The translations under genes were made by a program, and so were the position numbers. 64,000 bases of DNA. Origin: an uncultured Candidatus Saccharibacteria bacterium. Its GTDB lineage: Bacteria; Patescibacteriota; Saccharimonadia; Saccharimonadales; CAZDQS01. The stretch lies in the NCBI GenBank assembly GCA_964507855.1, contig CAZDQS010000004.1:14888-78887 (forward strand), in the 5' to 3' direction. Shown piece after piece: positions 294 to 56,378 of this stretch. The notes below the pieces were generated by a model, which was given only the letters and a program-made list of their open reading frames with translations, had not been told where the DNA came from and did not search any database. The first letter of the stretch is position 1. Every line of letters begins with the position of its first letter.

Positions 294-1409
294 ATGGATT
301 CTGAGGCTTATCTTCATCGCGCTGGCCTGCTACGTACCGTAAACGCTTCGCTAGATAGGGAACTGGCGCGTGATAGCGACCCCGAAAGGCTCGACAGGCT
401 CATGCAGCTTGGCGCTGAGGCGGTAATTGCGGCTACTTTAGCGCGTGATAGCGAGCTGGTAACTACGCTTGCTGACTCGTTCAGGATAGTTGCCCGATCT
501 GAAATCTCGATTTTTAATCGGCTTACACCAAAGCAGAGAAACTCACTGCAAGCGATGACTTTTGCCAAAGAAAGCTCTGTTGATAGGATTGTCCAGTCCT
601 TGAGGGCTCAGGCGCCCATACGAGAAGAAGCCATGAAGTTCATGGACGACAGCCGCCGAGATATACGCCGCACGCAAGGAGAACTGTTTGCTTCTTTTAT
701 GAGTAATCGGTTGCAGAATCCTGGCCAAGGGGAAGATACACGCAGCTTCAACAAACGCCTGCTCAAAACCGCGACGCTCAGCGAGCTGGGGCTTAGACTA
801 CTACCGATCACCCGATGTGGAAATTCTGAACCATACAGCTTTCAGGTAGCAGGTGAAACCTTCTCGGATTTAGGCAACTCGGACCACGGCTGTCTCGTCA
901 ACGTACATGCCCTGCAGACAGAATATGACGCGCTCGTGGCGCTCCAGTTTATTGCCGCCAAATATGATTTTGGATTTATACCCCTTCTCGCAACTCCTAA
1001 TATCGACAGGATACGTAACTCGCATCAAAAATCACCACGGCTAAACGCGGATATTCTGCTCGTTAAGGACGATGGCACCGAAACCTTGCCCGTGCAGATA
1101 AAGGTTGATTGGCACGAACCGAAAAACGGCGCACGACAAAAAGAACCGCCATATGATGAGGAAGTGTTGATTATCGACTCCAAGACGCTCGGCACATGGT
1201 CATACGAAAATACAACCACAAAAACAAAATCCGGCAAGACCAGAACAAAGCCGCATGTACAATTCCTGGCCGGCGGCATCACGGCTGCCTTTGCCCGCAG
1301 ACAGGCAAAACGGGCGCCACTCCCTAAGTCCTTACAAACAATTACCAAGAACAGCCAGACAGAGCAAAGTATCGTAGAGGCACTACGATCAAAAGGCTTC
1401 GCAGCATAA
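294..1409 (+). CDS. hypothetical protein (371 aa)
   Basis: Long ORF with AT-rich upstream region. C-terminal half has E...D(ILLV)...QIK spacing loosely reminiscent of PD-(D/E)xK nucleases; not diagnostic. Confidence 0.55.
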   Translation: MDSEAYLHRAGLLRTVNASLDRELARDSDPERLDRLMQLGAEAVIAATLARDSELVTTLADSFRIVARSEISIFNRLTPKQRNSLQAMTFAKESSVDRIVQSLRAQAPIREEAMKFMDDSRRDIRRTQGELFASFMSNRLQNPGQGEDTRSFNKRLLKTATLSELGLRLLPITRCGNSEPYSFQVAGETFSDLGNSDHGCLVNVHALQTEYDALVALQFIAAKYDFGFIPLLATPNIDRIRNSHQKSPRLNADILLVKDDGTETLPVQIKVDWHEPKNGARQKEPPYDEEVLIIDSKTLGTWSYENTTTKTKSGKTRTKPHVQFLAGGITAAFARRQAKRAPLPKSLQTITKNSQTEQSIVEALRSKGFAA

Positions 1410-1783: not shown

Positions 1784-3019
1784 ATGCCTCTTATTATCGC
1801 TATGGCTACACACGACACCGACCACCAATCTCACTCTCCATCACCTTCTGGAAGCAAGAAGGTGATTAGCCCACTGCCCGGTGCCGACAGCATAAACGCC
1901 GCGGCAGAACTTGTGCGCAAACGGATTAACGAGATCTTCGGCCCGGAACCGGACGCCAAAGAAGAAATTGCCGAGGCCAAAGCTGCCGGCACTCATCGCT
2001 CTAAGCACCAGGAATTTATGTACCGTTTAAGCACATCCGGAAAATCCCTGGCCCAAATCCAGACTGAGTGGCATGAATATTACGTCAACTTGCCCGACCA
2101 TGAGAAGCACGAGGTCTGGCAAGAATTTTACGCGGCACACGACCAAACCAAGCGCCCCTCCGAAACTACTCCCGAAACACCTAGGCCCCTGCCAAAGTCT
2201 AAGCGTACGTCCCTCAAGCGCCCCGCCCCCCAAGCACCTGCCCAAGTCGTAAACGTTGCCGACCTCAAACAAGAATTGCTGCAGAAAGTCAGCAGCCGCT
2301 CACGCAAAGCCACGCACCACATACAGTCACTCCTCTTTGGCCTCGGCATGGGCTCGCTCGTCATGCTCATCCTGATGTTCGGCTTCTTCAATCAGCGCTT
2401 TATTGCGCCGTTCATGACTCCGAGCCGCGTCATCAGCAATACACCGATCATCCTTAATCCGAACGACACCACCGCCGGTCCCGAGCCGCGAATCATCATC
2501 CCAAAAATAAATGTCGACGTACCGGCTGTCTATGACGAATCGTCCATTGAAGAGGCGGCGGTCCAGCGCGCGCTAGAACGCGGTGTGCTCCATTACGCCA
2601 CCACGCCGAATCCGGGCGAGAAGGGCAATGCAGTCTTCTTCGGCCACTCCAGCAATAATATTTTCAATAGGGGACAGTACAAGTTTGCCTTCCTACTGCT
2701 CAAATCGCTTGAGCCGGGCGATACGTTCATCATCCACTACGACAGTGTCCGATACGTCTATAAAGTCTTCGAGAAGCGCATCGTGGCCCCGACAGAAGTT
2801 TCGGTTCTTAACCCCATAGCTGGCAAGGCCGCGACCGCAACACTCATTACGTGCGACCCACCAGGGCGCGACACTAACCGCCTCGTTGTCGTCGGCGAGC
2901 AAATATCACCCGATCCGTCAGGCAATGCAGAGAGTTCTGCGCTCAAGCCCGAACGCATGCCGGAAGTCGTCCCCAGCAACGCGCCAAGCCTGTGGTCACG
3001 TTTGACCGACTGGTTCTAA
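1784..3019 (+). CDS. sortase family transpeptidase with Pro-rich N-terminal region and TM anchor
   Basis: C-terminal domain carries the TLITC catalytic signature (ATLITCDPPG) and HSSN His motif; hydrophobic segment LLFGLGMGSLVMLILMFGFF. Confidence 0.85.
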   Translation: MPLIIAMATHDTDHQSHSPSPSGSKKVISPLPGADSINAAAELVRKRINEIFGPEPDAKEEIAEAKAAGTHRSKHQEFMYRLSTSGKSLAQIQTEWHEYYVNLPDHEKHEVWQEFYAAHDQTKRPSETTPETPRPLPKSKRTSLKRPAPQAPAQVVNVADLKQELLQKVSSRSRKATHHIQSLLFGLGMGSLVMLILMFGFFNQRFIAPFMTPSRVISNTPIILNPNDTTAGPEPRIIIPKINVDVPAVYDESSIEEAAVQRALERGVLHYATTPNPGEKGNAVFFGHSSNNIFNRGQYKFAFLLLKSLEPGDTFIIHYDSVRYVYKVFEKRIVAPTEVSVLNPIAGKAATATLITCDPPGRDTNRLVVVGEQISPDPSGNAESSALKPERMPEVVPSNAPSLWSRLTDWF

Positions 3020-3096: not shown

Positions 3097-4578
3097 TTAT
3101 TCCTCGACTATCAAAGATGTGCGGGTCACAGCGCTTCGCGCGCTATCCGTAACCGACGGTGCGATATTGAACACAGCATTGTAATCCCGGTTGAAGAAGA
3201 TGCCTTCGGCCAGGCTGGTTGGTGCCAATGTCCTGAGATTAATACCGTCATAATCAAACACAATCGTCTTGCCTTCGCTGACCGCAACCAGCCTGTGTCC
3301 GTCCATCCACATCGCGCGCTGTGCTCCGTCCAGCGGCTTCTCGAGTTCATAGCGGTAGCTGCGCTCCGTCTCCATATCAAACACGGCGAAGCGATTACCT
3401 CCCTGGGCAACAGCAAAGCGGGCATTGTGCGAGAAGCTAACAAAGCTTGCCTCGTCGACACGTAAAATCGCAGTCGCATACGGTACCTTAGGCTCAGACT
3501 GCTTTATGAGTGGGAACGGATCCCGATAGAGGTAAGCTCTGTTGTCAGCCTTTGAGCCCGCAATGATATACCACTTGTTCTCAAAGCGCGCCATATCAAG
3601 CAAGTACGTGTCGCTCGGCGACAATGTCCTGAGCTGGAACGAGCCGTCGTTGTCACGCACCTTTACGCTCACTTTGCCCTCGGGCGCGTCCTTCTCCGTC
3701 ACATACACGACATACTGCTCATCATGCGACTTAAAGTCCAAAACACCTGTCAAAAACGGCTCGATTGACCGATCGCGCAGCTCGGCAGCTTCGAGAACGC
3801 CGGTCTCTTGATTATAGAAGTAATAGCGGTCATAGCGCTTGTCACGCAAAACCAGCTCCGTCGGTGTGCGGCCAAACGCTTGCGAAAGATTTATGCTCTC
3901 CTCTGGCTTGTCGCGGTCGATCAAGATATACTCGCGGCCACCCTCAAAAGCGTGCTCCAACACAAGATGTCTGTTATCCGTAGACCACTCAACCACCTTC
4001 AGCGAACGGCCAGCCTTATCTGTCGTCATGAGGTCGGCGGGGAGGGTTATCCGCTGCGGCTCCACATCTTCCTCGTTCATATCATAGACATCAAAATCTA
4101 CGAAGTTACCCGGCACCTGCACCAGCAACCACTGCCGGTTGGGGCTAGCGGTAGCAAGTGAAGGCGTAGTTGAATATTGGCCCACGTCTGCTGTCTTTAG
4201 ATCAACAGGAAAGAGGAAGGGATACACAAACCGCTCAATACTGCCGCCGATAAGCGTAAAATCGCGCGTCCACCAATGGTAACCTTCGCGCTGCAGCTCC
4301 AAACTATACCGCCCCTCGGGCAGGTTAATGCGTGTATCGGTCCGCGACGAATGCCGCTCGCCATTCAAGAAAATATCCGCGGCCTGCGGCTGGGCGGCAA
4401 TATATACCAACCCGTTCCGGGTAATCTGGCCATCCTTGCCAAGACTGTAGCCAAACGTCAGCGCAGCGAGCACCATTGACCCCAACCCAATCGCAACCCC
4501 GATAAGCACATAGCCCACCATCAATCGGTTGCGGTGCGCACGCTTTTTCTTCGGGTCAAGAAAATCCATTAGCATCAT
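3097..4578 (-). CDS. PEGA domain-containing membrane-anchored protein
   Basis: N-terminal TM helix followed by a PEGA-type motif (FLNGERHSSRTDTRINLPEGRYSLELQREGY) and a long beta-rich C-terminal region. Confidence 0.7.
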   Translation of the reverse strand: MMLMDFLDPKKKRAHRNRLMVGYVLIGVAIGLGSMVLAALTFGYSLGKDGQITRNGLVYIAAQPQAADIFLNGERHSSRTDTRINLPEGRYSLELQREGYHWWTRDFTLIGGSIERFVYPFLFPVDLKTADVGQYSTTPSLATASPNRQWLLVQVPGNFVDFDVYDMNEEDVEPQRITLPADLMTTDKAGRSLKVVEWSTDNRHLVLEHAFEGGREYILIDRDKPEESINLSQAFGRTPTELVLRDKRYDRYYFYNQETGVLEAAELRDRSIEPFLTGVLDFKSHDEQYVVYVTEKDAPEGKVSVKVRDNDGSFQLRTLSPSDTYLLDMARFENKWYIIAGSKADNRAYLYRDPFPLIKQSEPKVPYATAILRVDEASFVSFSHNARFAVAQGGNRFAVFDMETERSYRYELEKPLDGAQRAMWMDGHRLVAVSEGKTIVFDYDGINLRTLAPTSLAEGIFFNRDYNAVFNIAPSVTDSARSAVTRTSLIVEE

Positions 4579-4706
4579 TATAAATCATCGCGCGCGGAAA
4601 CAAATGGGCTACTGGAGACAAATTCACCATAAGCGGGTATTGCGAGCTTTAGACACTAGCGGTACTATACATAGTAGAACCGAACAAAAGAGGGTAACAA
4701 AAAACA

Positions 4707-5996
4707 GTGGGACAGGGAAAAACATTTGTGGAGCTGAATGGCAAACGGTACGACACCCGGACCGGACGTGTGCTTGATATTGTCGCGCCAAAAAGCGCAG
4801 CAGTAGCCAAAAAGCCGCTTCACATCCGTAAGGCCAAACCCTCAACCGGCAAGCATGTTGACGGGTTCGTGCGCGCACATGCCAGCAAAGTCGCCGTAGC
4901 CGCACCAAAGCCGGCACCCAAGCCAGCCGCACCCGCTCCTGTCGCAGTTAAGACGGAGGAACCGAAGCCCAAGAAGCAAGTCGACCGCAACGTCAAGCAC
5001 CTTCGCCGTCGTTCACCGCAAAAGGCAAAAACGCTCATGCGTACCGCTGTCAAAAAGCCGAACAAGACACCTGTCCAGGCGATTGCCTCTCCGGTACAGT
5101 CATCACCGTATCTCTCATTCTTGAGCGAGCCGGCAAACATCATCACCGCACGTGTGGCTTCAGAGCGAGCAACCCGCGCTATCAAGACCCAGAAAAGCGC
5201 GCTCATCAGCCGCTTTGGCGAGCTTGAACAAGCCATTATCAAAAAATCAGAGCAGATAAATGTCCGTGTTGCGCCGTCAAGCCAATCATTCAAGCCCATA
5301 CCGCAGAACGTTCCCGTAACCCAGCCGGCCAAAAAGCCAGCCGTAGCGCAATCAGCCGCGCCGGCGCGCCCACAAAAACCAAGCACCCACAATGCTGCCA
5401 AGCCTCAGCACGCCAAACCCGCCCCGTCGAAGAAAGCCGACGAACTTTTCGCCAAGGCGCTTGAGTCCGCCACCAGCCACCAGCACAAACCCGCCCCCAA
5501 GCCGAAAGCCCGCCAACGGCTCGCCCACAGCTTAGGGATGAGCACGCGAAGCGTCAGCCTCAGCGCAGCGGCCTTGAGCGTCTTGCTGTTAGCTGGCTTT
5601 TTCGCGTACCAGAACGTACCAAATTTCGCTATGCGCCTGGCAGCCTCGAAGGCCGGTTTCGCTGCCTCAATGCCTGGCTACCACCCTGCCGGCTTTACCA
5701 TGGACGGGCCGATTGCTTACGGCCCAGGGCACATCACCCTCAACTTCAAGTCCACGACCGACGAACGCTACTACAAGATCACCCAGCGGCCCTCCAACTG
5801 GAACAGCGAAACATTACTTGACCAGTATGTCGCAGCCGAGCGCCGGTCTTACCAGACCTACCAAAACCAAGGCAAAACCGTCTACATATACGATGGCGCG
5901 AACGCGACCTGGGTAGACGGCGGCGTCTGGTTCCACATCGAAGCTAGCGACAGCCTCAATAGCGACCAGCTACTCAAAGTCGCCAGCAGCTTGTAA
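4707..5996 (+). CDS. Lys/Ala/Pro-rich membrane protein with DUF4367-like C-terminal domain (anti-sigma-factor-like architecture)
   Basis: GTG start; low-complexity N-terminal half, one TM (LSAAALSVLLLAGFFAY). C-terminus ends ...SDSLNSDQLLKVASSL, typical of DUF4367. Confidence 0.6.
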   Translation: MGQGKTFVELNGKRYDTRTGRVLDIVAPKSAAVAKKPLHIRKAKPSTGKHVDGFVRAHASKVAVAAPKPAPKPAAPAPVAVKTEEPKPKKQVDRNVKHLRRRSPQKAKTLMRTAVKKPNKTPVQAIASPVQSSPYLSFLSEPANIITARVASERATRAIKTQKSALISRFGELEQAIIKKSEQINVRVAPSSQSFKPIPQNVPVTQPAKKPAVAQSAAPARPQKPSTHNAAKPQHAKPAPSKKADELFAKALESATSHQHKPAPKPKARQRLAHSLGMSTRSVSLSAAALSVLLLAGFFAYQNVPNFAMRLAASKAGFAASMPGYHPAGFTMDGPIAYGPGHITLNFKSTTDERYYKITQRPSNWNSETLLDQYVAAERRSYQTYQNQGKTVYIYDGANATWVDGGVWFHIEASDSLNSDQLLKVASSL

Positions 5997-6307: not shown

Positions 6308-7735
6308 ATGAATACTGTTCGCACCCGATTTGCACCGAGCCCGACGGGATATTTGCACGTTGGCGGTATCCGTACCGCGTTGTTTGCCTGGCTGGTCGCA
6401 CGCCAGGCAGGCGGCCAGTTTATCTTGCGCTTTGAGGATACTGACAAGAAGCGGGAAGTCGAAGGCGCCCGTGAACACCTTATAAAAAGCCTCCGTACCC
6501 TCGGTATGGAATATGACGAAGGTCCCGACAAGGGCGGCCCGTTTGCACCCTATGTCCAAAGCGAACGCCTGGACAGTTACAAGGTCTGGGCACAGAAGCT
6601 GATTGATGCCGGCCGCGCCTATGCCGACCCGTACACGCCTGAGGAAGTGCAGAAGTTCCGCGAACAGGCGCAAGCAGCAAAACGACCGTTCCTGTACCGC
6701 AACCACCGCCCCGAAAACCCGCCTGCGTGGGATGGCACACGACCCTTGCGTTTTAAGTCCGACCCGAAGCCTTACCGTTGGCACGACGAAGTCATGGGCG
6801 ATCTTTCAACCGGCCCAGAAGTCATTGACGACTTTATCCTTATCAAATCCGACGGTTACCCGACGTACAACTTCGCGCATATTATCGATGACGCAGAGAT
6901 GGAGATAACTCATGTCATCCGGGGCCAGGAGTTCCTGGCAAGCGTACCGAATTACCTCAACCTCTATGAAGCACTTGGCCTAACACCGCCTATCATGGCG
7001 ACCATGCCACACGTACTCGGCCCCGACGGCAAGAAAAAGCTCTCCAAGCGTGACGGCGCCAAGGATGTACTGGATTATGTCCGGGAAGGCTACTTGCCGG
7101 AAGCGCTTGTAAGCTTTATTGCAACCTTAGGCTGGAACGACGGCACCGAGCAAGAAGTCTTTACCGTCGAGGAACTGATTAAAAAATTCAGCCTCGACCG
7201 TGTCCAGAAGAGCGGCGCGCGCTTTGATGAGCGCCGCCTGCTGTGGGTAAACGGCCACTTTATCCGCGAGCTGCCGCTCGACGAATTGTACATCCGGGTT
7301 AAGGAGTACTGGCCGGAAGAATCTGCCAGCTTTGATGATGCATATAAAAAGAGTGTGCTGGCTCTCGTACAGGAACGCCTCAAATTCTTTGCCGAACTGC
7401 CTGAACTGACCCGGTTTTTCTTTACCGACTTGCCGCTAAACCCCGAGCTTATAGGCACTCACAAGCAGCTGAAAAAGCTGTCCGGCGAGGAGCTGAAATC
7501 ACTGCTTGAGCAAGCACGCGGGATTATTGCTGATAGCGACTTCAGCGCTGAAGAACTACAAAAAGACCTGAACGAACTACTGGAATCCACCGGCCAGAAG
7601 CCAGCCGTATTGTTCAGCCTTATCCGCATAGCCACCACTCAAAGCCCAGCTAGCCCCGGCCTCGCCGAAACGCTTGCAATCTTGGGTAAAGAAACCACGC
7701 TCCGCCGCATCGACGAGCAACTAGCTCAGCTCTAG
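6308..7735 (+). CDS. gltX: glutamate--tRNA ligase
   Basis: RFAPSPTGYLHVGG (HIGH-type) and KLSKRDG (KMSKS-type) class I signatures; full-length 475 aa. Confidence 0.95.
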   Translation: MNTVRTRFAPSPTGYLHVGGIRTALFAWLVARQAGGQFILRFEDTDKKREVEGAREHLIKSLRTLGMEYDEGPDKGGPFAPYVQSERLDSYKVWAQKLIDAGRAYADPYTPEEVQKFREQAQAAKRPFLYRNHRPENPPAWDGTRPLRFKSDPKPYRWHDEVMGDLSTGPEVIDDFILIKSDGYPTYNFAHIIDDAEMEITHVIRGQEFLASVPNYLNLYEALGLTPPIMATMPHVLGPDGKKKLSKRDGAKDVLDYVREGYLPEALVSFIATLGWNDGTEQEVFTVEELIKKFSLDRVQKSGARFDERRLLWVNGHFIRELPLDELYIRVKEYWPEESASFDDAYKKSVLALVQERLKFFAELPELTRFFFTDLPLNPELIGTHKQLKKLSGEELKSLLEQARGIIADSDFSAEELQKDLNELLESTGQKPAVLFSLIRIATTQSPASPGLAETLAILGKETTLRRIDEQLAQL

Positions 7736-14513: not shown

Positions 14514-14768
14514 ATGAAAACAGCACAGTTGATCAACAAGGCAGTAGAAGTTAACTCTTTTTACTTCACCCAAGGAAAACAATTTAAGTCATTTCCGGCA
14601 CGCATTACTGTCGACAACCGTCAGTACGCGTTCCAGTCGGGCCTGCAAATGCTCATAGAGAAAGGCCAGCAGGCCATCCGGCTGTTCCAGATGACCGACG
14701 GCAGCGCGACTTACCGGATCAAGCAAGAGGGCGGCCAATGGGTGCTGCTCAGCATAGCAAGGGGGTAA
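14514..14768 (+). CDS. hypothetical protein (84 aa)
   Basis: ORF with strong SD (AAAGGAG) 8 nt upstream of the ATG. Confidence 0.5.
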   Translation: MKTAQLINKAVEVNSFYFTQGKQFKSFPARITVDNRQYAFQSGLQMLIEKGQQAIRLFQMTDGSATYRIKQEGGQWVLLSIARG

Positions 14769-14773
14769 TTCAT

Positions 14774-15172
14774 ATGGAAACGACTATGGATCCAAGACCG
14801 GTCAAACCGACCAAAAACAGTTGGGCTTTCGCGGTTGATTTAGGCCGCACAGTCGGGAGAAACAGCTCTCGATTCGGGCGTGCCGGACGCTCTCGCTTGA
14901 GCCGAGTTTCGGTGCGGCGGCGAGAAACGCAAGGGAGCCGTACAGGGAAGTACGGTGACCGCGTATCGAAGCCGACAAGCCGGAAATCGGCCAAGAGGAC
15001 AGCGGGGTCTCCGGCTTTGCCAGAGAGCAGACCGTCCGGCGAGAGTGTCCGGCGATGTGTCATTACGGCCTGTTCCAAGGAAGCCAAGGCTTTTGGCATC
15101 AAAGCCGGGATGCGCTACGAAGAAGCAAAAAGGCTCATCCCAGAACTGCGAATATTAATCTATAACCGCTAG
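14774..15172 (+). pseudogene. Y-family DNA polymerase N-terminal fragment carrying a palindromic insertion
   Basis: C-terminal 38 aa (RCVITACSKEAKAFGIKAGMRYEEAKRLIPELRILIYN) resemble the conserved N-terminal finger region of DinB/UmuC. The ORF stops after it, lacks the DxxxFF catalytic motif and contains family-1 element copy A. Confidence 0.35.
14883..15052 (+). repeat. family-1 GC-rich palindromic insertion element, copy A (170 nt)
   Basis: Terminal helix 14883-14896/15039-15052 (14 bp, one G.U); inner helix 14901-14912/14980-14991; core alignable to 17045-17185. Confidence 0.7.
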
Positions 15173-15188: not shown

Positions 15189-15536
15189 ATGGACTACGAA
15201 TTAGAACCAGTCGACGAGAGCGTCGGCACTTCAGTACACATGGGCTTCCCCAATGCTGCTGTAGACACACGCCTGACCGGCCTGGACATCAGCCAGCTGC
15301 TCATCAAGCGGCCGCACAGCACGTTCTTTATGCGCATATCGGGTAACCAGTGGAGCCGCGACGGCATATTTGACGGCGACATCGCTATCATCGACCGGGC
15401 GCTGAACCCGCAGGTGACCGACCTGGTCGTCTGGTGGCAGGAAGACAACGAGTTTGCTATCTCGCTCTTCAGCCGCGTGCGCAAAGGATGCCCGGTATGG
15501 GGGGTTGTCACGAACATAATCCACCAGTTCCGATGA
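15189..15536 (+). CDS. UmuD-like S24 peptidase-fold protein, catalytic residues substituted
   Basis: Aligns by eye to UmuD (GFPNAA..., DGDIAIIDR). The GDSM serine motif reads GNQW and the TVKK lysine position reads AISL. ATGA overlap with umuC. Confidence 0.75.
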   Translation: MDYELEPVDESVGTSVHMGFPNAAVDTRLTGLDISQLLIKRPHSTFFMRISGNQWSRDGIFDGDIAIIDRALNPQVTDLVVWWQEDNEFAISLFSRVRKGCPVWGVVTNIIHQFR

Positions 15537-16810
15537 AAACCCGCGTATTTGCACTCATAGATTGCAACAATTTTTTCGTCTCATGCGAAAGGATCTTCCG
15601 GCCAGACCTCGAAGGCAGGCCCGTTGTCGTACTGTCCAGCAACGACGGCTGTGCTGTCGCCAGGTCGAACGAAGCCAAGCGCCTCGGCATCCCCATGGGC
15701 GCACCCGCTTTCAAGTACCGGCAGCTGTTCGAGCGGGAAAGGGTCGTACGGTTCAGCGCCAACTTTGAGCTCTACAGCGATATCTCCCGGCGGATAACCC
15801 ATATACTTACTGAAGTTACGCCGCGTATTGAGATCTATTCTATTGATGAATCATTCCTAGACCTTTCGACGCTCGACATCCGTGATTATGAGGCATGGGG
15901 CAGGGCAGTGCGGACACGCATCCAGAAGGAGGTTGGCGTACCGGTTTCTGTCGGCATCGCACCCACCAAGACGCTCGCCAAGCTCGCCACCGAGTACGCC
16001 AAGCAGCATCCGGACTCCGGCGGCGCTACGTCATTCATAGACAAAGACCTGAAGCCCTACCGGCAGCATATTGCCCTGGAAGACATCTGGGGTATTGGCT
16101 GGCGCCTCGCGCCTCGCCTGCGGGCGCTTGGCCTCGCCACGGCCGATGACGTAGCCGGATTACGTCCACAGCTTGCCCAAAAGCTCATGGGTATCCACGG
16201 CCGCCAGCTGGTGTACGAGCTGAACGGCACGGCATGTTTTCCCATGGAACTCCTGCATCAAAAACCCAAGAGCATCGCCCGCACCCGTACCTTTGGCGAA
16301 GACACCCGGGAGTTTTATGTACTGGAGGCAGCTGTCGCTAACTTCGTCACCCAGGCCGCCTTCCGGCTGCGCCAGTCCGCCCAGCTGGCCCGCCGCTTAG
16401 GCCTATTCCTCTGCAGCAATAAACACAAACCCAATTACCAGATATGGAACCAAGAGGCGGTGTTCCAGGTACCGACAGCCGACACAGGACAGCTCATTTC
16501 CGCCGGCATCGCCTTGCTAACCGACATGTACGAGCCTACCACCGAATATCATCGGGCAGGGGTGTGGCTGCATGACTTTGTCCCTGCTGATCAACTTCAA
16601 ACCGACCTACTCGGCACCGTCGACGTGCGTGAACACGCCCGCGCCATGAGCCGCATGCAGGCCATCGACGGCATCAATAACCGCTACGGCCGCCGCACCA
16701 TCCGCTTCGCCGCCGAAGACCTCGCTCAGGCCTGGCAACCCAAACACGGCTTGCGCAGCCCCCGCTACGTTTCCACTTGGGAAGAGCTGCCACTCGCGCG
16801 TATAGTATAA
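15533..16810 (+). CDS. umuC: Y-family DNA polymerase (UmuC-type, Pol V catalytic subunit)
   Basis: FALIDCNNFFVSCERIF..., VLSSNDGCAVARSNEAKRLGI, SIDESFLD motifs. Start moved to the MKTRVF ATG overlapping the upstream stop. Confidence 0.9.
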   Translation: MKTRVFALIDCNNFFVSCERIFRPDLEGRPVVVLSSNDGCAVARSNEAKRLGIPMGAPAFKYRQLFERERVVRFSANFELYSDISRRITHILTEVTPRIEIYSIDESFLDLSTLDIRDYEAWGRAVRTRIQKEVGVPVSVGIAPTKTLAKLATEYAKQHPDSGGATSFIDKDLKPYRQHIALEDIWGIGWRLAPRLRALGLATADDVAGLRPQLAQKLMGIHGRQLVYELNGTACFPMELLHQKPKSIARTRTFGEDTREFYVLEAAVANFVTQAAFRLRQSAQLARRLGLFLCSNKHKPNYQIWNQEAVFQVPTADTGQLISAGIALLTDMYEPTTEYHRAGVWLHDFVPADQLQTDLLGTVDVREHARAMSRMQAIDGINNRYGRRTIRFAAEDLAQAWQPKHGLRSPRYVSTWEELPLARIV

Positions 16811-16821
16811 TCACCTCTGTT

Positions 16822-17622
16822 ATGAAAGCCACCGACCAGCTACTGGCAAAATATCCGCTTATTTCCGACCAAATTAGCCGGGAAGAGTTGGGCGTGGTTT
16901 TGCGGGAGTTGGAAACAACACTGCAGCAAAGTGTTCCTGGAACAGTGGTAGAGTTCGGCTGCTACAAGGGCACAACCAGTCTGTTTATCCGCCGACTGCT
17001 AGATTACTACAAGGATTCACACCGTACGGTCGGAGTACCTGCACTTGAGCCAAGTTTCGGTGCGGCGGCGAGGAACGCAAGCGAGGCGTACATGTCGTAC
17101 GGTGAGCGCGTACCGGAGCCGCCCAGCCGAAAATTGGCCAAGAGACCGGCAGAGTCTCTGGCTTTGCCAGAGAGCAGGCCGGACGGTGCAGGTACTCCGA
17201 GGGAGTTCCATGCGTATGATTCTTTCGAAGGCTTGCCACCCAAGAGCAGGGAAGACCAGAGTGCCGCCGGCGTGGATTTCACAGCTGGCGAACTCGCGAT
17301 CAGTAAAAAGCAATTTCTGAAAGAATTCCACAAAGCAGGATTGCAACCACCTATCACGCATAAGGGCTGGTTCAATGAGCTTTCCGATAAGGATATCCCA
17401 GAAGAAATTGCCTTTGCGTTCCTCGATGGGGATTTTTATGGTTCCATCAGGGATTCGTTGCAGCTCGTTTGGCCGCGGCTGCACGAGCAGGGGGTGATAT
17501 TGATTCATGACTACAAGCGTGAGACGCTGCCCGGGGTAGAGAAGGCGGTGCACGAGTTTCTGCAGGACAAACCGCACCGCCTGAGGTACGAACACAATAT
17601 TGCGATTGTGGCGCAATCTTAA
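16822..17622 (+). CDS. TylF/MycF-type class I SAM-dependent methyltransferase with a 59-codon in-frame insertion
   Basis: VEFGCYKGTTS (SAM-binding loop), DSFEGLP, LDGDFYGS, ILIHDY motifs; insertion between ...KDSHR and EFHAYDSFEG. Confidence 0.8.
   Translation: MKATDQLLAKYPLISDQISREELGVVLRELETTLQQSVPGTVVEFGCYKGTTSLFIRRLLDYYKDSHRTVGVPALEPSFGAAARNASEAYMSYGERVPEPPSRKLAKRPAESLALPESRPDGAGTPREFHAYDSFEGLPPKSREDQSAAGVDFTAGELAISKKQFLKEFHKAGLQPPITHKGWFNELSDKDIPEEIAFAFLDGDFYGSIRDSLQLVWPRLHEQGVILIHDYKRETLPGVEKAVHEFLQDKPHRLRYEHNIAIVAQS
17030..17200 (+). repeat. family-1 GC-rich palindromic insertion element, copy B (171 nt)
   Basis: Perfect 15-bp terminal helix 17030-17044/17186-17200; inner helix 17049-17060/17127-17138; central CGTAC hairpin. 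Confidence 0.75.
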
Positions 17623-18097: not shown

Positions 18098-18144
18098 TTG
18101 AAAGTACCAAAGTAAAAACCGGAGGCTAGCTCCGGTCATTACTT

Positions 18145-18299
18145 TGGTGACCTCACGGGGAATACAGGTATAATCCGCCCGTTTGCCAGCACGCTGGCGG
18201 GGGATTATCGAACCACCTGGGATTCGATTCCGTTTCTCGGCGAGAAACTACCAATGAAAAACACCCACCAAAAGAGTGGGTGCCTTTCATTGGTGACCC
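18145..18299 (-). repeat. 155-bp direct repeat, distal copy (starts with the 3'-terminal 19 nt of tRNA-Glu)
   Basis: 150 of 155 positions identical to 19168-19322. On the minus strand it reads terminator hairpin, three further hairpins, then ATTCCCCGTGAGGTCACCA. Confidence 0.85.
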
Positions 18300-18514: not shown

Positions 18515-19090
18515 CTAATTGGTCGGTGATAGAGTTTTAATAGAGTCGTCCACTGATTTTCGGTAGGTGCCACTGAAGAAACCATCGCCCGCATGCGTGG
18601 GGTCATAGTAATAGAAGTAATCACCGACAGTCTTGTGAGACCAATTGTTTTGTGTTGCACAATCTTCGTTAGTATCACACCTAGCTAAACCTGATTTTGT
18701 ACCTGTCTTCGCTCGATACAGCAGACCCATCTTTTCCTGTGTCTCAGGACCACCACTTAGCTTACCCTCAGCTTCGAGCGAAGGACTGGTTAGACGAACC
18801 GATTCTATCCCCCTATAGTTTTGGTAGTTCTCGTAGGTGAGATCTTGAATCTCATTCGGTACACTAATTTGCACACCCCATTCTTTAATATCGAGGTATT
18901 TACTATTGCTTGCTTCTTTATTTGCTTGATTTGTTGCTGATGACTGTTCGAATTGAGCAGTGCTGGTAGTCTCTTTATTCTTGTTGCTCTGGCGGTCGTA
19001 TACGAGCCAACCCACAGCTCCAAGTAGTCCAACTACAACTACTACGATAAGTATTTCAACGACACTAAAACCTTTTTGATTAGCTTTCAT
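18515..19090 (-). CDS. type IV pilin-like protein (prepilin-type N-terminal cleavage/methylation domain)
   Basis: MKANQKG/FSVVEILIVVVVVGLLGAVGWLVY: G-F cleavage site, Glu at +5, hydrophobic helix. AAGGAG SD upstream of this ATG. Confidence 0.8.
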   Translation of the reverse strand: MKANQKGFSVVEILIVVVVVGLLGAVGWLVYDRQSNKNKETTSTAQFEQSSATNQANKEASNSKYLDIKEWGVQISVPNEIQDLTYENYQNYRGIESVRLTSPSLEAEGKLSGGPETQEKMGLLYRAKTGTKSGLARCDTNEDCATQNNWSHKTVGDYFYYYDPTHAGDGFFSGTYRKSVDDSIKTLSPTN

Positions 19091-19167
19091 ATATTCTCCT
19101 TTATTCTCCTTATGCTCGTTTATAACATGAATGAAATAAAAAAGCACTTGTTAAAGTACTCAATCAT

Positions 19168-19322
19168 TGGTGACCTCACGGGGAATACAGGTATAATCCG
19201 CCCGTTTGCCAGCACGCTGGCGGGGGATTATCGAACCGCCTGGGGTTCGATTCCGTTTCTCGGTGAGAAACTACCAATGAAAAACACCCACCTGAAGAGT
19301 GGGTGCCTTTCATTGGTGACCT
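19168..19322 (-). repeat. 155-bp direct repeat, tRNA-proximal copy
   Basis: See 18145-18299. Its last 9 nt (19314-19322) are the real 3' end of tRNA-Glu. Confidence 0.85.
19276..19313 (-). terminator. Rho-independent terminator directly after tRNA-Glu
   Basis: Minus strand: GGCACCCAC-TCTTCAG-GTGGGTG followed by TTTTTC. Confidence 0.7.
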
Positions 19323-19388
19323 CACGGGGAATCGAACCCCGATTGCCAGGATGAGAACCTGGTGTCCTAACCGTTAGACGATGAGGCC
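19314..19388 (-). tRNA. tRNA-Glu (anticodon CTC)
   Basis: Manual cloverleaf: GGCCTCA/TGAGGTC acceptor (one G.U), D arm GTCT-AACGGTTA-GGAC, anticodon arm CCAGG-TTCTCAT-CCTGG, T arm CGGGG-TTCGATT-CCCCG, encoded ACCA. Confidence 0.92.
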
Positions 19389-24856: not shown

Positions 24857-26377
24857 ATGAAAAAATTACCCATCGTAGCCATCGTCGGACGAGCGAATGT
24901 TGGCAAGTCCAGCTTGTTTAACGCCATCCTGGAGCGGCGTGAGGCAATTGTTGCCGACGAGCCAGGCACGACCCGCGATGCCATCACCGCCAAAGCAACT
25001 ATCTGGAGTCGAGAAAGCGAGACGAAATCCTCGCCGCATTTGGATGGAGCGCAAGGCGAAGGCGAGCAGCGGACCGAGGCGTATACGAAATACGACGAGG
25101 GAGCAGCACAGCCTTCCACGCAGCGATCCGCCAAAAATGCCAGCAGGGTTGACGGCTCTGCAGGCAAGCAGGCTGGTATGGTGCGGCAGGATTTCTGGCT
25201 CGTGGATACGGCCGGTATGAAAACGGCCGAAGATGACTTCGAGCTCACTATCCAAGAGCAGATTATGGAAGCGGCCGCAGCAGCCGATATCATCTTGGTC
25301 GTTATCGAAGCACACGTGACAATCACTGAAGAGGACCGCCGGGTCGCCAAGCTAGCCTTAAAGAGCAAAAAGCCGGTAATTCTCGTCGTCAATAAGGCCG
25401 ACAAGTCTCGCGGTGCTGCTCCAGAAGACTACCTTCGCCTCGGCATCAAAGAAATCTATCTCACCAGCACGACACAACGCGATGGTATCGATGACCTGCT
25501 TGAGGGTTTAAGTGATCAATTGCCCCAAGCTACCCTCCAGGAGGCCAGCGACCGCCTGCACATTGCAATCCTGGGCCGTCCGAACGTCGGCAAATCCCGG
25601 CTCTTCAACACGCTTGCCAAGAAACAGCAGGCAATCGTCGCCGACCGTGCCGGCACAACCCGCGACATTAACCGCACGACGGTGCGCTATCACGGCAGGG
25701 AAATCGAAATTATGGATACCGCCGGTATTCGCCGCAGCGGCAAAATCGAGCAGGGCGTGGAGCGGTTCAGTGTCATCCGGTCCTTAAGCGCCATCGAACA
25801 AGCCGACATCTGCCTCTTGCTCCTCGACGTTAATGAGCTAAGCACAGCGCTTGATCAAAAAATCGCCGGCATGATCAAAGAAGCCGGCAGAGGTCTGGTC
25901 CTCGTCGTCAGCAAGTGGGACTCGCTTGAAGAAAAGACACCCTTTAGTCGCGACCAAATCGCCCCCGAAATACAAGCCAGCTTTGAGTTCGTACCGTGGG
26001 CACCGCTCGTATTTACAAGCTCTGTCACCGGCCAAAACGTCACCAAGCTCTTCGAACTTGCGCTCGAAATAGACGAACGTCGCAAGCAACAGATAAAGAC
26101 CACCGAATTAAACCGCTGGCTTCGCCAGGTAGTAGACAAGCATCCGCCGGCCGGCCTCAAGAACCGCCAGCCCAAACTCAACTACATGGTACAAGAGGAC
26201 AATCCCATCCCGTCATTCCGCGTCTACGGCGCGCACACGAAGTTCCTCCACTGGTCATACAAGCGTTTTATGGAGCGAGACTTCCGCGAGCACTATGACT
26301 ACATTGGCTCACCGGTCAAATTCTGGTTCATCGAAAAACACGAAACGCACAAGCACGGCCAAGCGCCTCGCAAATAG
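24857..26377 (+). CDS. der: ribosome-associated GTPase Der (EngA) with a ~58-codon in-frame insertion in GTPase domain 1
   Basis: Two G domains (GRANVGKSSLFN ... DTAG ... NKAD; GRPNVGKSRLFN ... DTAGIR ... SKWD) plus KH-like C-terminus. Extra segment between ATIW and FWLVDTAG. Confidence 0.92.
   Translation: MKKLPIVAIVGRANVGKSSLFNAILERREAIVADEPGTTRDAITAKATIWSRESETKSSPHLDGAQGEGEQRTEAYTKYDEGAAQPSTQRSAKNASRVDGSAGKQAGMVRQDFWLVDTAGMKTAEDDFELTIQEQIMEAAAAADIILVVIEAHVTITEEDRRVAKLALKSKKPVILVVNKADKSRGAAPEDYLRLGIKEIYLTSTTQRDGIDDLLEGLSDQLPQATLQEASDRLHIAILGRPNVGKSRLFNTLAKKQQAIVADRAGTTRDINRTTVRYHGREIEIMDTAGIRRSGKIEQGVERFSVIRSLSAIEQADICLLLLDVNELSTALDQKIAGMIKEAGRGLVLVVSKWDSLEEKTPFSRDQIAPEIQASFEFVPWAPLVFTSSVTGQNVTKLFELALEIDERRKQQIKTTELNRWLRQVVDKHPPAGLKNRQPKLNYMVQEDNPIPSFRVYGAHTKFLHWSYKRFMERDFREHYDYIGSPVKFWFIEKHETHKHGQAPRK
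25024..25195 (+). repeat. family-1 palindromic insertion element, diverged copy C (172 nt)
   Basis: Terminal helix 25024-25038/25182-25195 (14 bp, one bulge). Core shares CGCAAG, GAGGCGTA-hairpin-TACG, GCCAA and GCCAG..AGCAGG..GACGG blocks with copies A and B. Confidence 0.6.
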
Positions 26378-41425: not shown

Positions 41426-41745
41426 AGATGCCTTTTGTTTTTGTTTTTGTTTTGGTCCAGTGGTGAGCTTTTGATGGCTCACCACTGGGCTGGTCGCATA
41501 CTACAGTACTTTTACTCGTACCTTGTATGCCCGGGAGCTGCTTTTTACCTGGATAGGCATGGAGCTCTCCTTTGTTTTTTAGTTCTTAGCAATGCAGCTG
41601 GATGCGATACAAGGAAGAAGCGAAGCCCGCACCGAGCTGTACATGAGGTACAGCGAGGGAGGACTAGAGCTTCTGACGCAGTAGCGCGCCAGCAGTCCTG
41701 GCAAGCTTTCGGGCTTTGCCCGAAAATTGACAGGACGGTGCATTG

Positions 41746-42648
41746 TTAAGGTTTTTGTTTTGCTGCGGCCCGAAGCTTAGCGCTCCGTGCTCGCGGATTA
41801 AAAACTATTTCCTTACTATCGCCGCTGACAGGACTCTTAGTGAGTATCCGAAGCTCGGCATCATAGCGGTCCCCGCCGTGCTCGGCAAAGAACTGTTTGA
41901 CAATACGATCTTCCAAGCTATGGAAGCTGATTATTGCCAACCTGCCCCCTGGCGCAAGCAATTCAAGCCACAGTGGCAATGCCTGCTCCAACTGGCCCAG
42001 CTCGTCGTTGACGGCAATCCGAAGCGCCTGGAAGACACGGGTCGCTGGATGAATCTTGTGCTTCCCTGTCCTTGGCGGCCGGACGGCTGCAGCGATAATA
42101 TGCGCAAGTTCCGTGGTCGTAGATATTGGTCGGTGCTCAATAATTGCAGCGGCAATACGTTTCGCGTGAGGATCTTCGCCGTAGCGGCGGAATATGTCCA
42201 CCAGTTCGGCTTCACCATACGTGTTGACGATGTGCTCGGCAGTCAATTGCTGCCGGTTATCCATCCGCATATCGAGCGGCCCTTCCTGGGAAAAGGAAAA
42301 ACCACGGTCTGCATTGTCAAGGTGCGGTGACGACACGCCCAAATCGGCCAGGATAAGATCGAAGCGGTTCCCTTCTCCGACAAGTTGCTTGGCAGCATCC
42401 AGATAATGCATATGCACTATCCGCACGCCAGTGCCCGCGAACTTATCGGCCAACACTTTGACCGCTTGCTCGTCCCGATCAACCAGGACAGCGCCTTCGC
42501 TGTTTTTTGTACGCGCCAACACTTCAGAAGCGTGCCCACCGTAACCGGCCGTCGCATCGAGGTACGTTTCACCTCTTTGCGGGTCCAGGTACTGTAACAC
42601 TTCTTCTAGTAGTACCGGCACATGATATGGTTGTGACTGGTTTACCAT
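41746..42648 (-). CDS. rsmH: 16S rRNA (cytosine1402-N4)-methyltransferase
   Basis: HVPVLLEEV, DATAGYGGHA, DLGVSSPHLD, SFHSLEDRIVK motifs. Confidence 0.93.
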   Translation of the reverse strand: MVNQSQPYHVPVLLEEVLQYLDPQRGETYLDATAGYGGHASEVLARTKNSEGAVLVDRDEQAVKVLADKFAGTGVRIVHMHYLDAAKQLVGEGNRFDLILADLGVSSPHLDNADRGFSFSQEGPLDMRMDNRQQLTAEHIVNTYGEAELVDIFRRYGEDPHAKRIAAAIIEHRPISTTTELAHIIAAAVRPPRTGKHKIHPATRVFQALRIAVNDELGQLEQALPLWLELLAPGGRLAIISFHSLEDRIVKQFFAEHGGDRYDAELRILTKSPVSGDSKEIVFNPRARSAKLRAAAKQKP

Positions 42649-43168
42649 CCTACTAAGGATAGCAAACCCTTTCTTTTTGTTTTGGTGAATCTTGCTTTTT
42701 GTTTTTGTTTTTGTTTTGGCAAGGTCACCTAACCAGCAGTCAACTTTTTGTTTTTTGGAATGTTTTTGTTTTTGTTTATATCCGGTGAGGCGCCGGATAT
42801 GGATATCCTAGGGGCGAATGGTGAAGATCTTACGAGAGGCTTAATGATAAGCCTAATCTTCGCCGGCCCGCAGGATAAAAGTTTGAGAGACTTTGTGTGA
42901 GGTGGAGTTTTGGGAGGTGTTTTGTAGTGGAAGGTACAAAGGTGTTTTTATGTGGTGACTTCGATCCACATGTTGACTGCCGATTAGCTAACCTCGCATG
43001 GCTTACGAGACACCCATTCTGGGTTTCTCGTCGCGCCGGGCAGTCGACTGAATCGTCTGCTCGGGCTGCTCTTCCCGGCCTGTGGACGGGGAAAGCTTCA
43101 CCCGTTCCGGGCACAAATCGTGCCTTGTGGTGCTAATCGGTTTTGCTTGATTGTTAAAGAACTGCCCG

Positions 43169-48877: not shown

Positions 48878-49116
48878 CCATGGCTAGCTTGCCCAGGCTC
48901 TGCCGGCTCCTGATACGGCGAGTGTCAAAACCACAATTTCTGCGAAGGACGTGTTTGACGGCTTTTCCTTCCTTGAAGAATTAAGAAAGAAAAGCCGGAG
49001 TTGTCCGAAGCATTGTGGCTTTTGACGACGAGCGTATCAAGAGCTGGTAGCTGCCTGCCATTTCTTTGCCTCCTTTCTTGTTGGCACAAGAAAGGAGGTC
49101 GCTCCAGCCGGAACGG
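48878..49116 (+). repeat. family-2 structured intergenic repeat, copy R1 (239 nt)
   Basis: Aligns end to end with 56129-56367. Nested helices include CTGCCGGCTC/GAGCTGGTAG, GTCAAAACCACAAT/ATTGTGGCTTTTGAC and CCTCCTTTCTTG/CAAGAAAGGAGG. Confidence 0.8.
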
Positions 49117-49136
49117 CTGAGTGAACAGTGACTTCT

Positions 49137-56367: not shown

Positions 56368-56378
56368 ATTGGCCGAAA

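Follow-up and report, generated by a model that had tools for sequence, protein, structure and literature searches.

A Y-shaped repeat within der of a Saccharibacteria genome: a candidate mobile element whose closing helix pairs with host codons

MITEs carry element-borne terminal inverted repeats and are accompanied by direct target-site duplications. Self-splicing introns pair guide sequences with their exons, through P1/P10 (the internal guide sequence) in group I and through EBS-IBS in group II, and the omega-RNAs of IS200/IS605 TnpB/IscB consist of a conserved structured scaffold followed by about 16 nt of host flank that is specific to each copy. The Rickettsia palindromic elements (RPEs; Ogata et al. 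2000, 2002) are described in PMC2229807 and PMC10969869 as non-autonomous elements of about 100-150 bp with stable stem structures, which lie in frame in many conserved housekeeping genes, where they are translated and tolerated as an extra peptide, and which are also intergenic; the account in PMC2229807 gives them conserved terminal inverted repeats of about 12 bp that are the element's own. A template switch, in which one replication event copies a nearby reverse complement, can generate a perfect stem together with apparent compensatory changes (PMC8794818).

The 64-kb stretch of DNA analysed here (the window) contains an insert in der that we read, with moderate confidence, as a copy of a non-autonomous, Y-shaped mobile element which resembles the RPEs and which would write an inverted copy of its downstream target on insertion.

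The insert in der and the family to which it belongs

The product of the host ORF is identical (100%) to protein P0001, and its homologues are annotated as ribosome biogenesis GTPase Der. Precomputed Pfam assignments for P0001 and these homologues give two MMR_HSR1 domains and a KH_dom-like domain, and the G1 and G3 motifs are readable, identifying the host as Der/EngA. The insert lies in the β2-β3 turn of GTPase domain 1. The spacing between TRD and FWLV is 12 residues in about 85 (counted by eye) of the 120 best Der homologues but 71 here, and uninserted homologues have four residues between W/Y and F, as in WRDQD-F and WNGQD-F. An earlier note on this DNA had described a gap of about 62 residues between ATIW and FWLVDTAG, confirmed here as 62, and had proposed that deleting 174 nt would restore W-S-R-Q-D-F; most of the 120 best homologues are indeed far shorter, and the deletion (25013-25186, with an uncertainty of about 3 nt at either end) has the predicted result. 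Because no filled and empty pair of near-identical strains was found, the inserted nucleotides were inferred from protein alignments.

Table 1. Features of the der insert and of the element copies in the window (positions are those of the window)
Feature	Position	Strand	Description
der (engA), host of the insert	24857-26377	+	ORF, 506 codons / 506 aa
Insert in der	~25013-25186	+	174 nt, 58 codons, in frame; from about 85 uninserted homologues and a codon alignment of 7 orthologous inserts
Leader	25013-25023	+	variable; from host W-S-R codons to the 5' arm
P1 5' arm, element side	25024-25038	+	bulged C at 25032; covaries with the 3' arm
P2, long interrupted hairpin of the core	25039-25135	+	tip helix 25078-25096; RNAalifold consensus, 54 copies
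P3, shorter two-part hairpin of the core	25137-25179	+	GGCUCUGC loop region, loop 25157-25159
P1 3' arm, inner part (tgcgg)	25182-25186	+	encodes part of V-R; YRCR pattern; no R before QD in uninserted Der
P1 3' arm, outer part	25187-25195	+	host codons Q-D-F (cag gat ttc); QDFWLV in uninserted relatives
Copy c1	14882-15053, core 14896-15039	+	inside truncated Y-family polymerase (IMS) gene fragment, ORF 14738-15172
Copy c2	17031-17200, core 17044-17186	+	in frame in TylF-type O-methyltransferase gene (16777-17622)
Der copy	core 25039-25180	+	within der
Copy c4	41587-41748, core 41597-41738	+	intergenic, between rsmH and ftsL-like gene, both minus strand

The Der copy is one of four in the window, all on the same strand (Table 1). 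In copy c1, positions 29-66 of the Pfam IMS profile start directly after the element; the assignment to IMS comes from Pfam, a BLASTP comparison of this host ORF with the neighbouring UmuC being not significant. The c2 insert is absent from all 39 aligned homologues, the other matches listed are about 60 aa shorter, and the closest homologue of the host gene among 15 billion proteins is 71% identical. Sharing between copies is limited to the core, bounded by CTTG...CGG, of which 142 nt were matched and which corresponds to about 156 nt (bases 19 to 174 of the alignment). A pattern scan yielded 73 loci, 59 of them in Saccharibacteria/Patescibacteria and all 59 confirmed by nhmmer; none of the other 14, from other phyla, was confirmed, and by our own estimate about 17 chance matches are expected. 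A peptide-profile search of a word-indexed protein database recovered only five small ORFs, and an exhaustive HMMER search with the window peptide did better. The genes that contain copies within their ORFs encode Der, LigA (two sites), GlmS, LepA, Dus (three copies), the TylF-type methyltransferase, PrmC, DHFR, an RluA-type enzyme, an Ogt-like protein, and UmuC.

The family is thus a small multi-copy repeat that lies in frame, with the frame open, in conserved protein genes, as RPEs do, and like MITEs it has no transposase gene of its own. Among the window ORFs scanned with Pfam there was neither a transposase nor a reverse transcriptase, clustering of neighbouring ORFs revealed no gene that recurs beside the copies, and viral contigs did not match the family. 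The Rfam 15 covariance models gave no match in the window at the gathering threshold and none for c1-c2 at E<=10; over the Der copy there was one chance 20-nt match (E=2.5), and the family belongs to none of the group I intron, group II intron, or known ribozyme models of that release. GC skew at the copies is without bias (42 negative versus 31 positive), and orientation relative to neighbouring genes is only weakly biased (45 of 72 co-oriented), so that the common strand of the four window copies offers no evidence of strand-specific transposition. Judged from these sequences, the family can be classed as a non-autonomous mobile element, restricted by its nhmmer-confirmed loci to Saccharibacteria/Patescibacteria.

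The fold and its closing helix

All copies fold as a three-way junction (Y shape), and the RNAalifold consensus of 54 copies has compensatory changes in 45 of its 52 pairs; fold z-scores are -4.4, -7.0 and -9.0. The excess of G-U over A-C pairs (194 versus 67, p=1.7e-15) indicates that the folding strand is the sense strand, as RNA or single-stranded DNA, and a U-G wobble is kept in 46 of the 54 copies. A likeness of the P2 tip (GAGCCGUAU...UACGGU) to domain V of group II introns was considered and dropped, as there is no Rfam match, intron models included. The inserts of two Der copies, L006 and L007, have diverged by about 31%, but the two still share 49 of 52 intact pairs, a number reached in none of 20,000 runs of a neutral simulation (31.9 ± 3.4 pairs). 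It should be noted that this comparison is restricted to the part in which the two are about 80% identical: they were rejected as a clean sister pair since 840 nt are 100% identical and the switch to about 80% falls at an element copy, making recombination or an assembly chimera likely.

The helix that closes the Y (P1, the clamp) is private to each copy, with 12-18 bp, and the flanks of a copy pair far better with each other than with swapped flanks (Mann-Whitney p=2e-36). In the Der copy it consists of gaaatcctcgccgca and tgcggcaggatttc, which form 14 bp with a single bulged C, and the duplex has a stability of -29.4 kcal/mol; when flanks of other copies were paired in 4422 mismatched combinations, just 3 did as well. 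Among eight Der orthologues the arms covary, with 96.4% of cells paired and double changes in 11 of the 14 pairs, a result matched by none of 500 shuffles, and synonymous changes in the Q-D-F codons are accompanied by matching changes in the 5' arm. The integrity of the clamp shows no link with that of the core.

The earlier note had taken the 3' arm of this helix to be host sequence encoding R-Q-D-F and had named uninserted Der homologues as the comparison that could overturn a host origin. Those relatives do encode QDFWLV, so that a host origin stands for Q-D-F(-W), but probably not for R: the residue before QD in uninserted Der is G, D, or N, never R. The R codon and the innermost 4-5 bp of the helix are therefore probably element sequence rather than host, which leaves host sequence in about 9-10 of the 14 pairs, the inner 4 bp having a purine/pyrimidine pattern (YRCR) that is kept in 47 non-orthologous copies. 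Across the family, the 4-5 inner pairs could be carried by the element or reflect a target preference for YRCR.

In the outer 8-14 bp, the element-side 5' arm pairs with the host sequence directly downstream. Where the host protein is conserved (Der, LigA, GlmS, Dus, PrmC and gene starts), the 3' strand is the host sequence and the 5' strand its reverse complement, and the 3' arm abuts or covers host motifs such as ASKFLQ in the LigA copy L040 (judged against the second LigA copy, L025), ANVSC-GIGHTRW in GlmS, NFSG-IDINFGCP in Dus, and ILTIVDVGTG in PrmC. A host 3' arm is also found in LepA, DHFR, the RluA-type gene and UmuC, and at three gene starts (L051, L055 and L048) it consists of the start codon and the first codons. 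Against this, an alternative parse of c2 and of LigA-L025 places both arms within the insert. Direct target-site duplications were not detected, alignments of upstream with downstream flanks being no better than those of permuted pairs (p=0.12-0.64), and conserved element-borne terminal inverted repeats are lacking, since only the 4-bp pattern is shared. Beyond these 4 bp the clamp carries about 0 bits of information, and the arms are unrelated even between non-orthologous cores that are 81-83% identical. A clamp built on the flanking target, as the earlier note had suggested, therefore accounts for the different helix of each copy. The guide-like role that it had attached to this pairing is a different matter: the 3' strand is host sequence family-wide, but the arms are not inherited between related copies, so that copying from the target at insertion fits better than a pre-existing guide.

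Translation, insertion, and alternative readings

The coding frame is open in all eight Der orthologues, compared with 4 of 16 for other frames (p=0.0013), the length differences between Der inserts are all multiples of 3, and every other copy within an ORF is likewise open and in phase. The encoded peptide (58 aa) is hydrophilic and of low complexity, beginning with E-S-E (S-R-E in an alternative parse) and ending with M-V-R, and for residues 57-103, which lie between two strands, the AlphaFold2 pLDDT is under 50. In the comparison of L006 with L007, the divergence at first, second, and third codon positions is 0.35, 0.30 and 0.42 in the insert and 0.06, 0.02 and 0.43 in the remainder of Der. 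In a separate measurement, from the codon alignment of orthologues, third codon positions are more conserved in the insert than in the rest of Der (0.36 versus 0.58). The insert is thus read through, giving about 58 aa that are predicted to form a disordered loop and that drift free of protein-level constraint, which supports the earlier suggestion of a tolerated surface loop. Inteins have a Hint domain of at least about 130 aa, with a nucleophile as first residue and His-Asn at the end, and an intein was ruled out by the length, termini, and predicted disorder of the peptide.

According to the reading that we prefer, of a mobile element which writes an inverted copy of its target, the 5' arm would be made at insertion as the reverse complement of the downstream target, an "inverted target-site duplication." The likely route, a purely inferred one, is a snap-back or template switch, whether in replication or in reverse transcription, in which the new complementary strand folds into the Y and takes the target just copied as its template. 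This reading leaves the variable leader upstream of the 5' arm unaccounted for. The leader varies from 8 to 32 nt among Der orthologues in steps of 3, has no complementarity to downstream sequence, and forms no direct repeat; it was also ruled out as an outward continuation of the inverted copy, because flank complementarity reaches no further than about 13-18 nt from the core. Intact copies may be either young or kept folded by selection; the pairs retained between L006 and L007 and the conserved third codon positions of the insert fit a fold maintained at its site, whether through selection or through templated correction, at least as well as they fit recent insertion. A broader proposal is put forward only tentatively: that the family represents a new class of mobile element, a small structured RNA or DNA module that at each insertion copies the neighbouring target into itself in inverted orientation, is clamped to or targeted at its host, recolonises the same sites of der and other essential genes much as a homing element would but with no linked protein gene, and keeps its fold, host-codon pairs included, while its peptide drifts.

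Selection in place is the basis of the first alternative, that the element is a maintained RNA or single-stranded DNA module which acts on its host through mRNA stability, translation, or factor binding, its fold and host-codon pairing being selected and the start codon sequestered at gene starts. The retention of structure at near-neutral sequence divergence, the constrained third codon positions, the conserved wobble and sense-strand pairing bias, and the pairing of several copies with the start and first codons of a downstream gene are all in its favor. We consider it rather unlikely, because many Der lineages have shorter loops at the same site, which look like deletion remnants of a decayed insert, intergenic copies occur in both orientations, with c4 antisense within an operon, and the host genes are functionally unrelated. 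The same pattern is also expected if intact copies are recent products of a master selected for mobility.

Guide-directed homing, in which leader and 5' arm belong to the mobile unit, the arm steers insertion to a point immediately before the target by pairing with it, in the manner of intron guide sequences, and a Der-specific lineage spreads between genomes with its arm corrected to the local target, draws on the distribution of the insert. Der genes with the insert are interspersed with genes that lack it, and seven Der copies have a common junction and bulge position, four of them with a 17-nt leader, although the Der backbones that carry them do not group as one clade (0 of 100 bootstraps and 15 of 15 quartets). 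This counts against the preferred reading, as it calls for an exceptionally strong hotspot, for homing, or for loss on many occasions. In addition, a second subfamily (L008) is inserted in the same Der loop, 9 nt away, and the Der pairing has survived 11 double changes. However, the arms show neither relatedness between the most similar non-orthologous cores nor information beyond 4 bp, synonymous sites of the target vary freely between alleles, giving no sign of co-conversion, and no nuclease or recombinase partner was found among window ORFs or neighbours of the copies. A guide that exactly matches the synonymous codons of each host would still require templated correction, and we regard homing by a guide as unlikely.

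Removal before or during translation, by splicing from the mRNA or bypass by the ribosome so that the loop is never made, is very unlikely. A peptide free of protein-level constraint, a strong fold that pairs with the downstream "exon," and the sense orientation of all copies seen inside long ORFs would suit it, but a helix of about 14-21 bp holds the two junctions apart, one at either end, and the Rfam intron and ribozyme models are unmatched. In bypass elements the insert is skipped, so that neither the frame nor freedom from stops is required. Frame conservation, which removal does not require, thus disfavours processing at the RNA level, the other option raised by the earlier note, and with the multiple-of-3 indels it rules out translational bypass of the T4 gene 60 or mitochondrial byps type. 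Local expansion of a non-mobile loop, with hairpins arising from replication template switching alone, can appeal to the known ability of such switching to create and maintain hairpins (PMC8794818) and to the variable length of the Der loop in many lineages, but is scarcely credible, being already contradicted by the spread of one core over at least 59 loci in many genomes, unrelated genes, and intergenic DNA, and would survive only as a route for making or repairing the clamp.

If the preferred reading of a target-copying mobile element is correct, the family, previously undescribed, would be a second, independent case, beside the Rickettsia RPEs, of selfish DNA inside essential protein genes, here in the reduced genomes of Saccharibacteria. 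It would explain length variants of Der, LigA, GlmS, PrmC, DHFR, and other proteins, and such inserts are unreliable as clade markers. Nucleotide constraints can overlie the codons of a universal GTPase, in that synonymous sites in the Q-D-F codons change in concert with an insert 150 nt upstream. The insertion signature suggests snap-back or template switching, possibly guide pairing, and is testable. The family is also a well-supported structured nucleic acid, a candidate RNA family absent from Rfam.

Comparison with described systems

The likeness to RPEs, drawn by description rather than by sequence, is that both are small, non-autonomous, folded repeats which are translated in frame in housekeeping genes and also occur between genes. 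They differ in that the RPE repeats are conserved and element-borne, whereas here the terminal helix differs in each copy and its 3' strand is host sequence; in addition, the present element forms a three-way junction rather than a single hairpin and belongs to another phylum. Bacterial MITEs (Correia/NEMIS, ERIC, RUP and YPAL) are similar in size, copy number, absence of a coding gene, strong folding of the transcript, and occasional in-frame fusions. The present family has neither their element-borne terminal inverted repeats nor their direct duplications; its target is duplicated in inverted orientation, across the element, a signature unlike that of the MITEs compared.

Omega-RNAs, compared here by their general description, share the juxtaposition of a structured scaffold with a host flank that differs in each copy, but do not contain a second, complementary copy of the guide. 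Derivation from IS200/IS605 elements (PATE or omega-RNA) is not indicated: TnpA, TnpB and IscB domains are absent from the window ORFs by Pfam, no such gene lies beside the copies, there is no recurrent neighbour, and GC skew gives no strand bias. With the guides of self-splicing introns the element has in common a sequence near the 5' end of the insert that pairs with flanking host sequence, is site-specific, and covaries with the host. It differs from introns in having a core of about 156 nt with no catalytic core and no match to an Rfam intron model, in being read through in frame, and in the distance between its junctions. The template switch (PMC8794818) is the same kind of event as that proposed for the clamp; the switches described there act locally, with no mobile core, whereas here a conserved element, present at many loci, separates the inverted copy from its template.

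The insert in Der and its translation

The Der protein encoded in the window, which derives from a Candidatus Saccharibacteria genome, has 62 residues between ...AKATIW and FWLVDTAG. Its stretch from TRD to FWLV comprises 71 residues versus 12 in the majority (about 85, counted by eye) of the 120 top-ranked homologues, in which the gap from Trp or Tyr to Phe is 4 residues, as in WRDQD-F and WNGQD-F. Removal of the insert in silico restores W-S-R-Q-D-F, and the two arms of the closing helix (P1) pair over 14 bp, leaving a single C bulged; when flanks from different copies are combined, just 3 of 4422 combinations are as stable as the duplex of the copy's own flanks (−29.4 kcal/mol). The homologue comparison, the deletion, and the arm pairing thus bear out the 174-nt insert with a 14-bp terminal helix described in the earlier note.

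In the DNA of eight insert-bearing Der genes, the coding frame is open across the insert in all eight, versus 4 of 16 for the other two frames (p = 0.0013), and the differences in insert length are all multiples of three. In an AlphaFold2 prediction from an alignment of 58 sequences, pLDDT falls under 50 over residues 57–103, flanked by strands 43–52 and 108–117, and the insert is predicted to be a disordered loop capping a beta hairpin. The earlier note held that such an insert must be either tolerated as a surface loop or removed at the RNA level; the open frame and the predicted loop favor the former, and frame conservation disfavors the latter, including splicing, as well as ribosomal bypass. 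Two of the loci, L006 and L007, diverge at the three codon positions by 0.35/0.30/0.42 across the insert, versus 0.06/0.02/0.43 for the remainder of Der; over 21 pairs, the values for insert and remainder are 0.26/0.25/0.36 and 0.23/0.15/0.58, respectively. In these comparisons, the insert has no protein-level pattern, with third positions constrained, and it is evidently read through and translated into a junk peptide.

Positions of family 1 copies and other features discussed
Locus	Feature	Position	Strand	Remarks
Window	ORF bearing c1	14738-15172		144 codons
Window	c1, core	14896-15039	+	within truncated Y-family polymerase fragment
Window	Intact umuD/umuC-like pair	15189-16810		downstream of c1 ORF
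Window	c2, core	17044-17186	+	in frame in TylF-type methyltransferase gene
Window	155-nt direct repeats	18144-18298, 19167-19321		97% identical, 1 kb apart
Window	ORF between 155-nt repeats	18515-19147	-	no Pfam match
Window	tRNA gene	19317-19388	-	abutted by second 155-nt repeat copy
Window	Der ORF	24857-26377	+	
Window	Insert removed from Der	25013-25186		174 nt
Window	Der copy, P1 5' arm	25024-25038		
Window	Der copy, core	25039-25180	+	inside Der
Window	Der copy, P1 3' arm	25182-25195		
Window	27-nt T-rich repeats	41429-41455, 42693-42719		96% identical, bracket rsmH and c4
Window	c4, core	41597-41738	+	between rsmH and ftsL-like gene, both on opposite strand
Window	Second repeat family	48900-49120, 56140-56370		two copies ~89% identical over ~250 nt
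Window	Pif1-family helicase gene	49137-50666	-	adjoins one second-family copy
Window	Second family, inverted partial match	59021-59048		
L058	Three in-frame copies	4258-5725		single tRNA-dihydrouridine synthase gene
L058	Fourth copy	2078-2219		close by, opposite strand to the three
L006	Copy on der start	801-944		
L007	Copy on der start	7354-7497		
L010	Copy on der start	4736-4879		

Distribution and fold of the family

Searched with a profile built from the conserved region, the window yields four copies, each of them on the plus strand. A wider scan with a degenerate 41–42-nt pattern, covering a single genome for each species, gave 73 loci, 59 of them in Saccharibacteria or in bins labelled Patescibacteria or Parcubacteria, and nhmmer confirms the element in all 59; in the other 14, from other phyla, it finds nothing, and about 17 chance matches were expected by our estimate. 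No Rfam family and no viral contig matches the element, and a literature search found no paper on such an element in Saccharibacteria. Copies within long ORFs are without exception sense-oriented, and intergenic copies occur in both orientations; a single reading frame, encoding a hydrophilic peptide, is shared by most of the in-ORF copies. In the c1-bearing ORF, the final 38 residues before the stop correspond to an N-terminal portion of the IMS (Y-family polymerase) profile; this ORF looks like a polymerase pseudogene, and c1 is internally frame-shifted relative to c2. The genome of L058, CAZOZI01, is the source of four loci.

The fold of every copy is far more stable than that of shuffled sequence (z-scores −4.4 to −9.0), and 54 aligned full-length copies give a three-way junction consisting of P1, a long interrupted hairpin (P2), and a two-part hairpin (P3), with compensatory double changes in 45 of 52 consensus pairs. 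At paired positions, G-U outnumbers A-C by 194 to 67 (p = 1.7e-15), and 46 of the 54 copies retain one particular U-G pair, which argues that the structure belongs to the sense strand, where it would form as RNA or single-stranded DNA.

Other repeats are present in the window. In each copy of a second family, a long hairpin (z −8.0 and −7.1) precedes a perfect 14-bp hairpin resembling a terminator; unlike in family 1, the outer stem is common to both copies, with compensatory changes. Helicases of the Pif1 type, one of which is encoded beside a second-family copy, unwind structured DNA. The 155-nt repeats may mark the two ends of a small element that integrated there. Read on the minus strand, the downstream copy of the 27-nt repeat (TGCYTTTTGTTTTTGTTTTTGTTTTGG) codes for the KQKQKQK run in the ftsL-like protein.

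The closing helix and host sequence

The closing helix differs from one copy to the next, in all copies. Pairing between a copy's own flanks is much stronger than between swapped flanks (Mann-Whitney p = 2e-36); complementarity extends 13–18 nt from the core, with none beyond, and homology between copies ends exactly at the base of P1. The core is mobile, and the cores of c1 and c2 are 83% identical, with unrelated arms. A purine/pyrimidine pattern is found only in the innermost 4 bp of P1 (YGYR on one side, YRCR on the other), and there is no direct target-site duplication around the copies. In the case of well-conserved host proteins, the 3' arm, downstream of the core, is host sequence. It coincides with or adjoins the motifs QDFWLV in Der, ASKFLQ in LigA of L040 (LigA of L025 has ASKKYPEFLQGR, without insert at that site), ANVSC-GIGHTRW in GlmS, NFSG-IDINFGCP in Dus, and ILTIVDVGTGSG in PrmC; a conserved motif also adjoins the arm in DHFR, an RluA-type protein, and UmuC, and in a response regulator, exonuclease III, and a glycosyltransferase, the arm is the start codon and first codons. 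Uninserted homologues have no counterpart of the 5' arm; the parse is ambiguous for both c2 and LigA of L025. The earlier suggestion that the clamp is built against flanking target is therefore right and general, but the R codon and the inner 4–5 bp of the Der clamp look like element sequence.

All 14 P1 pairs form in seven Der copies despite synonymous differences in the paired host codons (CGG/CGC/CGT/CAG/CAA, CAG/CAA/CAT, GAT/GAC, and TTC/TTT). Across the eight Der copies, 96.4% of P1 cells are paired, with double changes in 11 of 14 pairs, a level of pairing reached by none of 500 shuffles and compared with 36–48% in slid controls. Between L006 and L007, paired sites are 31% different, but both loci can form 49 of 52 pairs; the neutral expectation from simulation is 31.9 ± 3.4 pairs, and 49 was reached in none of 20000 runs. 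The contigs of these two loci (L006 1-4103 versus L007 6554-10652) are 100% identical over 840 nt and then ~80%, the switch occurring at the upstream element copy; the cause is either a recombination event at the repeat or chimeric metagenome assembly. That upstream copy, a second one that is also present in L010, lies directly on the der start, with the ATG among the core's final bases and codons 2–6 as the 3' arm; the 3' end of the core (AGCAGG, ~5 nt, ATG/GTG) resembles a ribosome-binding site and start codon.

Site history, insertion, and known systems

With the insert masked, the nearest neighbor of each insert-bearing Der is an uninserted Der, the sole exception being the mutual pair of homologues P0006/P0008; none of 100 bootstraps recovers the insert-bearing genes as monophyletic, and 15 of 15 quartets join an insert-bearing Der to its own uninserted neighbor. 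The uninserted loop has the B. subtilis length, and the uninserted state is therefore ancestral. Seven Der copies have a common junction and bulge position, and four a common 17-nt leader before the 5' arm; the eighth (L008) is of another subfamily and lies 9 nt upstream, and the loop was therefore hit at least twice. Shorter loops ending R-Q-D or R-D in many lineages look like deletion remnants, decay stages of the element. Among the homologues P0101, P0066, P0068, and P0032, one lineage has an 83-residue acidic expansion of the loop, and others have such shorter loops in a graded series of 33, 24, 16, and 13 residues. It is possible that the loop is a strong hotspot or homing site with young intact copies, which would account for intact folds without selection in place; it is also possible that an old insertion was lost many times, its fold being kept by selection or templated repair. 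Template switching is documented as both creating and repairing hairpins (PMC8794818).

We infer that the 5' arm is a copy of the target (T) made at insertion. A strand growing through the target would switch to an element template and copy the core; the new strand would fold into a Y, bringing its 3' end back to the just-made target copy, which it would copy for ~10–15 nt before rejoining the chromosome. The outcome would be upstream - revcomp(T) - core - T - downstream, matching the observed layout. No transposase or reverse transcriptase turned up in the window ORFs that were scanned, and none recurs beside copies.

There is a real chance that this insertion chemistry is new. The pairing of internal sequence with a downstream 'exon' resembles intron guide pairing only formally, and the two defining features of a MITE, conserved terminal repeats and direct duplications, are both absent. 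Among known systems, the Rickettsia palindromic element comes closest, being likewise in-frame, translated, and tolerated in many housekeeping genes (PMC2229807, PMC10969869). Compared by description, however, its closing helix is a conserved inverted repeat, whereas that of family 1 is variable and host-derived, and family 1 also differs in its three-way junction fold and in the phylum of its hosts.
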